This document shows positions 780-1,036 of a DNA stretch of 9,599 nt, piece after piece (position 1 is the first letter of the stretch; each line of letters begins with the position of its first letter). A program made the position numbers and the translations under genes. The notes beneath the pieces are model-generated. The model made no database searches. It had not been told where the DNA came from and saw only the letters and a program-made list of their open reading frames with translations. Origin of the DNA: a virus (Duplodnaviria > Heunggongvirae > Uroviricota > Caudoviricetes). The DNA lies in IMG/VR virus record IMGVR_UViG_2541047169_000010; one strand, 5' to 3'.

Positions 780-1036
780 GCGACCTTATTATTCATGCGC
801 GGTATTGTCGCCGTATTCCTGCATTAACAGAGACCGCAGCCCGACCGGGAGAATCCTCTGCGCGAGTGTGCGGGGATAATCAAAAACGATACACACCGGG
901 GTTTACCGCGTTAACGGAGCGCGGTGTTGTCCCCTCATAGTCGCCAGTCCGGTGCGATGGTGGAAGAAACTGGATTTTGTTGCAAATGATAACCATTATC
1001 ATTTTTGCGGGTCCTCCTGGTGGGGTGGGCCTGAAC

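Follow-up and report, generated by a model that had tools for sequence, protein, structure and literature searches.

We describe a predicted operator for the host regulator Fur that adjoins cosQ in the lambda-type cos site of a tailed phage and that appears, from comparisons across phages and prophages, to be a modular, optional sub-site of cos, inherited together with cosQ and not with the genes around it. The operator lies at positions 984-1004 of a 9,599-nt stretch of DNA taken from the IMG/VR virus record IMGVR_UViG_2541047169_000010 (Caudoviricetes), referred to here at its full length as the window. Fur is the ferric uptake regulator, and it binds DNA as Fe2+-Fur dimers. Sites of this kind have long been listed in the iron literature of Escherichia coli K-12; their position within cos, and what Fur might do there, are the subjects of this report.

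The predicted Fur operator and its counterparts in lambda and K-12 prophages

An initial annotation of the window had pointed out a Fur-box-like palindrome, and both its sequence and its coordinates were verified here. Within surroundings that read ...tggattttgtTGCAAATGATAACCATTATCATTTTTGCGGGTCCTcctgg..., the 19-mer GCAAATGATAACCATTATC at 982-1000 agrees with the Fur box GATAATGATAATCATTATC at 16 of 19 positions, a level of agreement that was never reached when the window was shuffled 200 times. The perfect 7-bp inverted repeat spanning 986-1002 is likewise present in the letters, with ATGATAA (986-992) and TTATCAT (996-1002) arranged around CCA and a TTTTT run (1002-1006) directly on its 3′ side, and the element does lie between a small open reading frame (ORF) and a lambda-type cos site, as had been stated.

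An empirical matrix agrees with the shuffles. It was built from ten K-12 operators (fhuA, entC, gpmA, sufA, cirA, ryhB, sodA, fecI, fhuF and bfd) that were aligned solely through their published centre coordinates, with a small shift permitted and no consensus supplied. On this matrix 984-1004 (AAATGATAACCATTATCATTT) scores 29.4 bits, which exceeds all ten training operators (20.0-27.0 bits in leave-one-out scoring), and it is identical to the empirical consensus AAATGATAATCATTATCATTT at 20 of 21 positions. The second-ranked Fur site anywhere in the 9.6-kb window reaches 6.9 bits, and the 99.9th percentile of a null distribution drawn from random 48-nt windows of related loci is 14.4 bits. Described as a 7-1-7 repeat, the core TGATAAC-C-ATTATCA at 987-1001 matches the consensus at 13 of 14 positions, and a weaker overlapping 7-1-7 lies 6 bp leftward (981-995; 10 of 14). 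The element is thus best described as a predicted 21-nt Fur site at 984-1004, whose AAA/TTT flanks belong to the Fur motif itself; with the TTT flank part of that motif, the TTTTT tail does not count as a terminator feature. By these measures the site has every mark of a bona fide, high-affinity operator for host Fur, composed of one strong 7-1-7 and perhaps a weaker overlapping one. Classical iron-uptake operators, among them fhuA, entC, fecI, cirA and ryhB, share the same motif, and the window score equals or betters theirs. They overlap -35 and -10 elements, whereas the window site overlaps no recognisable promoter and has neighbours that depend on the phage.

Counterparts of the palindrome are found 3-7 bp upstream of cosQ in phages lambda, 434 and phi80 and in the cryptic prophages DLP12 and Qin, and alignment identifies the window site as a homologue of the Fur sites of lambda, Qin ('nohA') and DLP12 ('nohB'). 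The right end of lambda reads gtaGATGATAATCATTATCACtttacGGGTCCTttccggtgatccgacaggttacg, where 5 nt separate the palindrome from cosQ and the DNA end is 36 bp away; in this arrangement, GATGATAATCATTATCAC-5 nt-cosQ, the Fur site occupies lambda 48449-48469. The Qin palindrome is identical to that of lambda, and DLP12 is nearly so (GATGATAATTATTATCAT-tttgt-GGGTCCT). On the empirical matrix the lambda site at 48449 scores 23.3 bits and the runner-up in the lambda genome 15.0. A 14/14 match to the 7-1-7 repeat is unique to this site across the whole lambda genome, and none of 100 composition-preserving shuffles of lambda produced one. The window copy resembles the noh and lambda sites in its slot (preceding cosQ by 5-7 bp and the cos nick by about 36-38 bp) and in its combination of a 7-1-7 core with A/T flanks, for which the noh and lambda sites have model scores of 22-25 bits. 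Unlike them, it has a C as the innermost base of its left half-site, its left flank is of another sequence, and it is joined to the cosN variant GGGCGGGCGGGC and to a terminase small subunit (TerS) of the DUF1441 type, not Nu1.

The view in the initial annotation that an iron-responsive operator in a phage late region is unexpected was overstated, as lambda itself has the same element, which entered lists of the Fur regulon under the names nohA/nohB in 1994-2007. Considered only as a Fur site, the window copy is a further member of the nohA/nohB/lambda family, which has been known since the 1990s. Fur titration led to the discovery of the nohB site, and in vivo selection to that of nohA (cited in PMC2189734). 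Chen et al. (2007) assigned 25.3 bits to the nohB cluster (579824) and 22.3 bits to nohA (1634624), placing them among the strongest sites in K-12, counted three to four overlapping Fur sites at nohA/nohB, and obtained a gel shift of a nohA oligonucleotide with 150 nM Fur (PMC2189734). When corrected for the shift between genome versions, positions 1634624 and 579824 hit the centres of the Qin and DLP12 palindromes, both of which are 233 bp upstream of the start codons of Nu1 homologues. Table 4 of the same paper (PMC2189734) puts the nohB site at -133, whereas our mapping places it 233 bp upstream, like nohA; the published figure is probably a misprint or reflects another start annotation. 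In the K-12 literature the noh site figures as an element of the promoter for the Nu1 homologue and is not assigned to cos.

The consensus for FNR is TTGAT-N4-ATCAA, which the Qin palindrome does not fit. A chromatin immunoprecipitation (ChIP-seq) study of FNR recorded a peak with its summit at 1634625 and grouped it with nine classical Fur operators (PMC3688515), and this position, given in older coordinates, falls exactly on the Qin palindrome at about 1636600 of NC_000913.3. The authors ascribe the signal to FNR masked by Fur (PMC3688515), so that the evidence for occupancy is indirect only; the poor fit to the FNR consensus is a hint that the ten 'FNR' peaks of the group may reflect Fur-bound DNA. 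The nohA/nohD genes go unmentioned in the main texts of two Fur ChIP studies (Beauchene 2015; Banerjee 2020), and the ChIP table of Hou et al. has no nohA or nohD entry, an absence that we suspect is due to the filtering of reads from repeated sequences.

In the literature open to our search there was no paper with both 'cosQ' and 'Fur' and none in which a Fur box was tied to terminase or cos. In the phage 434 record, with its 213 features, cosQ is marked and nothing is annotated at the palindrome. The 'nohA/nohB Fur boxes' of the iron literature are the sequence that abuts cosQ in lambda cos; the connection between the literatures of the iron regulon and of packaging, together with the generality of that connection, seems to have gone unremarked.

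Distribution of the Fur site among cos contexts

To avoid circularity, phage and prophage sequences (IMG/VR together with one genome per GTDB species) were scanned with cosQ and cosN as the only anchors. A Fur site of 18.0-31.1 bits ends a few base pairs before cosQ in 30 independent contexts; one further context is degenerate at 10.3 bits, and 18 score at most 4.4 bits. The contexts form two clearly separated score groups, with and without the Fur site. Those with the site come from at least six enterobacterial genera (Escherichia, Citrobacter, Kluyvera, Kosakonia, Buttiauxella and Dryocola). Lambda-identical cos sites also turned up at contig ends or on low-coverage contigs in non-enteric assemblies (L131, L134, L136, L146, L147, L151, L155, L157 and L161), including Oceanobacillus, Leeuwenhoekiella, Neobacillus, Shewanella, Raphidiopsis, Aeromicrobium, an Alicyclobacillus 'plasmid' and several metagenome-assembled genomes, and a contig from Archangium violaceum (L158) equals the right end of phi80 in the comparison, which took in 50 nt upstream of cosQ. 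These non-enteric copies are probably contamination with lambda or phi80 DNA.

To the left of cosQ, the stretch conserved among these contexts coincides with the Fur motif. The left flanks are unrelated (about 0 bits over -30 to -8), and conservation climbs to 1.2-1.9 bits in the core, with the TG at -6/-5 held at 0.6-1.0 bits across the cos-adjacent family. The central base of the repeat is weakly constrained (0.66 bits), which fits the free central base of the Fur 7-1-7, and a consensus drawn from the cos-adjacent sites agrees with the empirical Fur consensus at essentially all positions, AAA/TTT flanks included. The distance from core to cosQ, measured in 32 contexts, is 5 nt in 17, 6 nt in six, 7 nt in five, 4 nt in three and 3 nt in one, while the spacer sequences vary. 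Among the 40 departures from the palindrome in these 32 sites, 39 are uncompensated and one is compensated, which argues that the sequence is conserved as two protein half-sites and not as a hairpin.

Mosaic exchanges provide a second line of evidence. In Stx1_9793, the left flank, box and cosQ of the window are fused to a true lambda cosN-cosB-Nu1 segment. Stx2_EH2201, which has an HNH/P27-type terminase and no cosQ, shares the flank, and homology ends precisely where the box would start. Breakpoints of alignments between the window and E. coli genomes cluster at 985/986, at about 1002 and at 1015/1016. In relation to the cosQ/R4 region of lambda-type cos, then, the palindrome is directly adjacent and co-inherited by mosaic recombination. 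It differs from cosQ, the 7-bp GGGTCCT that is essential for termination, in being a separate and optional element with the specificity of a host regulator.

The genes on either side do not account for this pattern. The nearest left-hand ORFs, as far as crude ORF calling can tell, vary in identity and strand among the contexts and are mostly co-directional. A tie to one TerS family was rejected, the box being found with both Nu1 and DUF1441 types and Nu1-type cos sites occurring in both states (29 contexts with the box and 12 without). The Fur site thus depends neither on the flanking genes nor on the type of TerS. It had been proposed in the initial annotation that conservation of the palindrome across the cos sites of related phages would count against Fur and in favour of packaging. 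That conservation is indeed found, and Fur binding is not thereby refuted; because the palindrome is conserved across cos sites, we take the Fur site to be part of the cos module and its role to be more probably linked to cos than to an adjacent gene.

Scanning in the reverse direction, from perfect 7-1-7 boxes in viral contigs, gave mostly matches in AT-rich contigs, which are uninformative. Perfect boxes in enterobacteria-like viral contigs pointed to additional cos types. One group of phages with DUF1441 and gpA carries GGTACTC in place of the cosQ sequence GGGTCCT and keeps a perfect Fur box (L201, L224 and L251, compared with L211), and the same is true of a type with a degenerate cosQ, TATTTCT for GGGTCCT (L225, L214 and L253). 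According to published reviews, no variation of cosQ in nature is apparent.

A further group has an unrelated terminase. In phages of the SfV/SfII/SfIV/ST64B type the order is HNH endonuclease, cos and a TerS of the Terminase_4 family, and a Fur-like box matches at 12-14 of 14 positions (L265 3234-3277, L181, L200, L208 and L247 among other loci). The TGA stop codon of the HNH gene opens the box, TGATAATAA(T/C)TCTCA, and 9 nt separate the box from GGGGAGGGGCGGGTCAAATC, which forms the left arm of an inverted repeat at cos, GGGGCGGG...CCCGCCCC. At its right end (L379 515-575), the SfV record NC_003444 stops 46 nt past the box. With this G-rich motif as the sole anchor of a scan, 54 of 122 loci had a Fur site of at least 15 bits. 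The parallel placement of a box to the left of cos beside an unrelated terminase suggests convergence. In the same slot, within near-identical flanks, some loci have a sister variant, TAAGAACCAGTTCCCA, that replaces the Fur box (L280, L268, L276 and others, with flanks as in L265) and may be an alternative operator cassette; a hybrid, TTGATAACAGTTCCCA, occupies the slot in L263 and L306.

Other elements are found to the left of cosQ among lambda-type sites. Gifsy-1 (NC_010392; L383 about 113-127) lacks a Fur box and has the palindrome TGTTATATTGTAACA 21 bp to the left of cosQ. This sequence, also found in L024 and L116, agrees with the K-12 znuA/znuC Zur operator at 16 of 23 positions and may be a site for another regulator of the Fur family, which we mention as a lead only. 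In many sites with the same cosQ and cosN (L007, L018, L020, L049, L068, L073 and L123), a GC-rich hairpin followed by a T-run, that is, an intrinsic terminator, fills the slot. Several contigs (L042, L056, L062, L070 and L094) have two to three inverted cos sites 0.5-0.9 kb apart with a distinct protein downstream, and look like satellite elements of the phage-inducible chromosomal island type.

Possible roles of Fur at cos

The mechanism that we favour, tentatively and with somewhat less than even confidence, is that Fur serves cos as an accessory factor from the host, with an effect in cis. Bound at 984-1004, Fur would act on cos much as IHF does at site I1 across cosN. I1, in lambda cosB, is a functional analogue in that it is a site for a host protein within the packaging region, is accessory, and is found in many but not all lambda-like phages; it differs in binding IHF instead of Fur, the window site lies left of cosN beside cosQ, and occupancy of the latter would follow iron. 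Some 36-38 bp lie between the predicted operator and what will become the right end of the phage DNA. Since packaging runs from left to right, the translocating terminase would meet the Fur site just before cosQ, and a Fur-DNA complex would be the last obstacle for the motor before that signal. As a brake or landmark, Fur would buy terminase time to recognise cosQ and cosN and to terminate; alternatively or additionally, it would delimit the terminase-cos nucleoprotein complex. Any such effect would be modulatory, dependent on iron status and non-essential. Slow-packaging mutants of portal and terminase suppress cosQ mutations, which would make a brake plausible. For cosQ itself a role in packaging termination has been described (PMC4669245, PMC4856287): the moving complex has to recognise cosQ together with cosN, and without cosQ there is no arrest of translocation (PMC4856287).

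Several points weigh against this mechanism. No experiment ties Fur to packaging, and fur does not appear in the main text of a genome-wide lambda screen that did recover ihfA and ihfB among its 57 host genes (PMC2900299), so that any effect of Fur would not be essential for lytic growth. The box is missing from about 40% of the independent contexts with a lambda-type cos, among them Gifsy-1 and satellite-like elements with the same cosQ and cosN. A rigid contact between proteins is hard to reconcile with a gap to cosQ that varies by ±2 bp, and a motor that exerts tens of piconewtons may strip Fur from the DNA without a useful pause. Binding of Fur to the exact variant in the window, with C at core position 7, is extrapolated from homologues. 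Finally, some of the elements that lack the box have an intrinsic terminator in its slot, which could mean that the function is transcriptional.

The parallel with SfV-type phages would allow a broader proposal, which we regard as possible but doubtful: that Fur, and perhaps other metalloregulators of its family such as Zur in Gifsy-1, is a hitherto unrecognised host accessory factor of cos packaging in temperate enterobacterial phages of at least two unrelated terminase lineages. Read in this way, which we hold with the same reserve, lambda-type and SfV/HK97-type phages would each have put a top-affinity Fur operator in front of the leftmost terminase element; a Fur dimer loaded with iron would brake or position the arriving motor, or give shape to the nucleoprotein complex at cos, and the formation of genome ends would be coupled to the iron status of the host. 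Were Fur to act on cos even in the lambda type alone, a well-studied packaging site would gain a fourth, host-dependent sub-site, and packaging would be coupled to iron, a resource central to the conflict between host and pathogen, and the Shiga-toxin phages of O157:H7 would be among those concerned. Should Fur have no action on cos, an explanation is still needed for why its site is so strongly conserved.

That Fur instead governs the traffic of RNA polymerase across cos is, in our estimation, unlikely, although not to the degree of the alternatives that follow it. One version, the classical view that nohA/nohB is Fur-repressed, takes the site as the operator of a weak rightward promoter. It draws on the K-12 literature and databases, which place the site in the nohA/nohB 'promoter region' (PMC2189734, PMC3688515), and on a sequence, TTGTGA-18 nt-TATCAT/TATCAC, that can be read over the box in lambda and DLP12. 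In the window, on either strand, no sigma-70 promoter was called over the site, and the would-be -35 position has about 0 bits of conservation across the cos contexts. The site thus lacks the promoter overlap of a Fur-regulated promoter, which is a question separate from Fur binding as such. These results, along with the variable neighbours, leave the promoter, small-RNA and small-peptide interpretations of the initial annotation unsupported. We also rejected as a general explanation an operator serving a divergent left-hand gene (ynfO/ylcI in lambda, Qin and DLP12), as the flanks are unrelated and the nearest ORFs, by the same crude calls, are mostly co-directional.

The only expression data found that bear on a promoter concern nohA and nohD in a fur deletion, for which Hou et al. 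(2023; Table S2, PMC10219339) give log2 values of about -3.2 to -3.6, an increase of about 10-fold in the mutant. Strain NCM3722 carries a full lambda prophage, and in its delta-fur derivative with iron the SOS regulon and every gene of that prophage are up 4- to 12-fold (PMC10219339). As the lambda prophage rises with SOS, the increase in nohA/nohD is explained by induction and cross-mapping, not by a Fur-repressed promoter. Loss of Fur induces lambda in NCM3722, the apparent 'Fur regulation' of nohA/nohD there is an artefact, and we discarded these data as unusable evidence for Fur repression.

A second version of a transcriptional role has Fur as a roadblock that shields the terminase genes from upstream accessory transcripts in the lysogen and that Q-antiterminated late transcription passes. 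Terminase made in a lysogen would cleave the chromosome at cos, and the terminators that occupy the same slot elsewhere suggest that halting transcription before cos may be a recurring need. The lambda genes directly to the left of cos run leftward, and hence there is nothing to block; a roadblock effective solely in iron-replete cells would be a leaky safeguard; and neither a promoter nor a roadblock has need of tight spacing to cosQ.

It is improbable that the palindrome is a site for some other protein (a phage protein, terminase, IHF/HU or another host factor) or a structural element of cos whose likeness to a Fur site is incidental. The constant position beside cosQ speaks for such an element, as does the practice of the phi80 annotators, who fold the palindrome into 'cosQ; aka R4 region', and the standard lambda cos cassettes (48442/48446-182) contain it, so that a packaging role has never been excluded. 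The cos-adjacent consensus is, however, essentially the Fur consensus, down to the unconstrained central base and the AAA/TTT flanks. The palindrome is unlike an R-site or cosQ, and by eye it is a poor match to the IHF consensus, WATCAANNNNTTR. Moreover, Fur demonstrably binds the lambda/Qin sequence (PMC2189734).

A decoy function is slightly less probable still. Hundreds of replicating genomes, each with a top-affinity operator, would titrate Fur as in the Fur titration assay, derepressing iron uptake and other Fur-repressed functions to the benefit of the phage. The strength of the site equals that of the best chromosomal operators, and the DLP12 copy was indeed discovered through multicopy titration of Fur (PMC2189734). 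A decoy would work anywhere in the genome, which leaves unexplained both the fixed 3-7 bp distance to cosQ and the parallel in SfV-type phages, and late infection leaves little time for any benefit. A cell contains several thousand Fur molecules, so with one site per genome the effect would be modest.

Least probable by far is a weak intrinsic terminator or hairpin closing the lysis/accessory region. The initial annotation had allowed for a weak hairpin, and the perfect inverted repeat with its T-run and the true terminators found in the slot elsewhere speak for this alternative. We rejected it, since the RNA folds no better than expected (-7.8 kcal/mol, z = -0.92, with 27 of 200 shuffles folding as well), the stem is not GC-rich, no terminator call overlaps the site in the window, nearly all changes to the palindrome are uncompensated, and the T-run belongs to the Fur motif.

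The cos region and neighbouring genes in the window

The assignment of the window site to the lambda type rests on GGGTCCT, a 24-nt spacer and GGGCGGGCGGGC flanked by ACG and GCGG at 1037-1055, all aligned with lambda, phi80, 434 and DLP12, and on the terS, gpA-family terL and lambda-family portal genes downstream, as identified with Pfam and PHROG. In the alignment the spacer between cosQ and cosN has diverged from that of lambda, while the Fur site and cosQ are kept. The position of the nick at cosN is a putative one, placed by analogy with the lambda sequence GGGCGGCGACCT. The region between cosN and terS is likewise a putative cosB by virtue of its position, as in lambda; a repeat search found only imperfect inverted repeats, at 1084-1144, and as the TerS of the window is not Nu1-like, lambda R sequences are not expected there.

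Coordinates of features in the window, with the evidence for each
Feature	Position	Strand	Evidence or remark
Rz spanin, end of lysis cassette	64-531	+	Pfam PF03245, 1.5e-39
Small ORF ('orphan ORF' of the initial annotation), outside the element	555-779	+	phrog_2571 (unknown function), 2.8e-28
Non-coding stretch	780-1240		Holds predicted Fur site, cosQ and cosN
Predicted Fur operator, AAATGATAACCATTATCATTT	984-1004	.	Matrix score; homology to lambda 48449-48469, Qin and DLP12 sites
Spacer between Fur site and cosQ	1005-1008	+	7 nt from the end of the core (1001) to cosQ
cosQ, GGGTCCT	1009-1015	+	Identical to lambda 48473-48479; annotated as cosQ in phage 434
Spacer between cosQ and cosN	1016-1039	+	24 nt, compared with 23 nt in lambda; alignment
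Predicted cosN 12-nt cohesive-end segment, GGGCGGGCGGGC	1040-1051	+	Aligned to lambda, phi80 and DLP12 ends
Putative cosB/TerS-binding region	1052-1240	+	A/T tract, then inverted repeats 1084-1105 / 1123-1144
Terminase small subunit, DUF1441 type, not Nu1	1241-1717	+	Pfam PF07278, 3.8e-48; phrog_141, 6e-66
Terminase large subunit, lambda gpA family	1714-3837	+	Pfam GpA_ATPase, 1.8e-81; GpA_nuclease, 6.2e-84
Lambda-family portal	4046-5431		Pfam and PHROG matches; head and tail genes next

Identity of the region is 98% with phage VT1-Sakai and 100% with chromosomes of O157:H7, and related copies are present in 1,031 of 5,426 complete E. coli genomes, at up to 8 places per genome. Two further ORFs on the forward strand deserve mention. 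The first, of 66 aa at 740-940, matches a PHROG 'Rz-like spanin' over residues 20-64 (1.4e-13), which suggests that 780-980 is the remnant of a second lysis cassette left by mosaic recombination. The second, of 723 aa at 5229-7400, fuses a ClpP-type protease domain to a major-capsid domain, whereas lambda has separate C, Nu3 and E genes.

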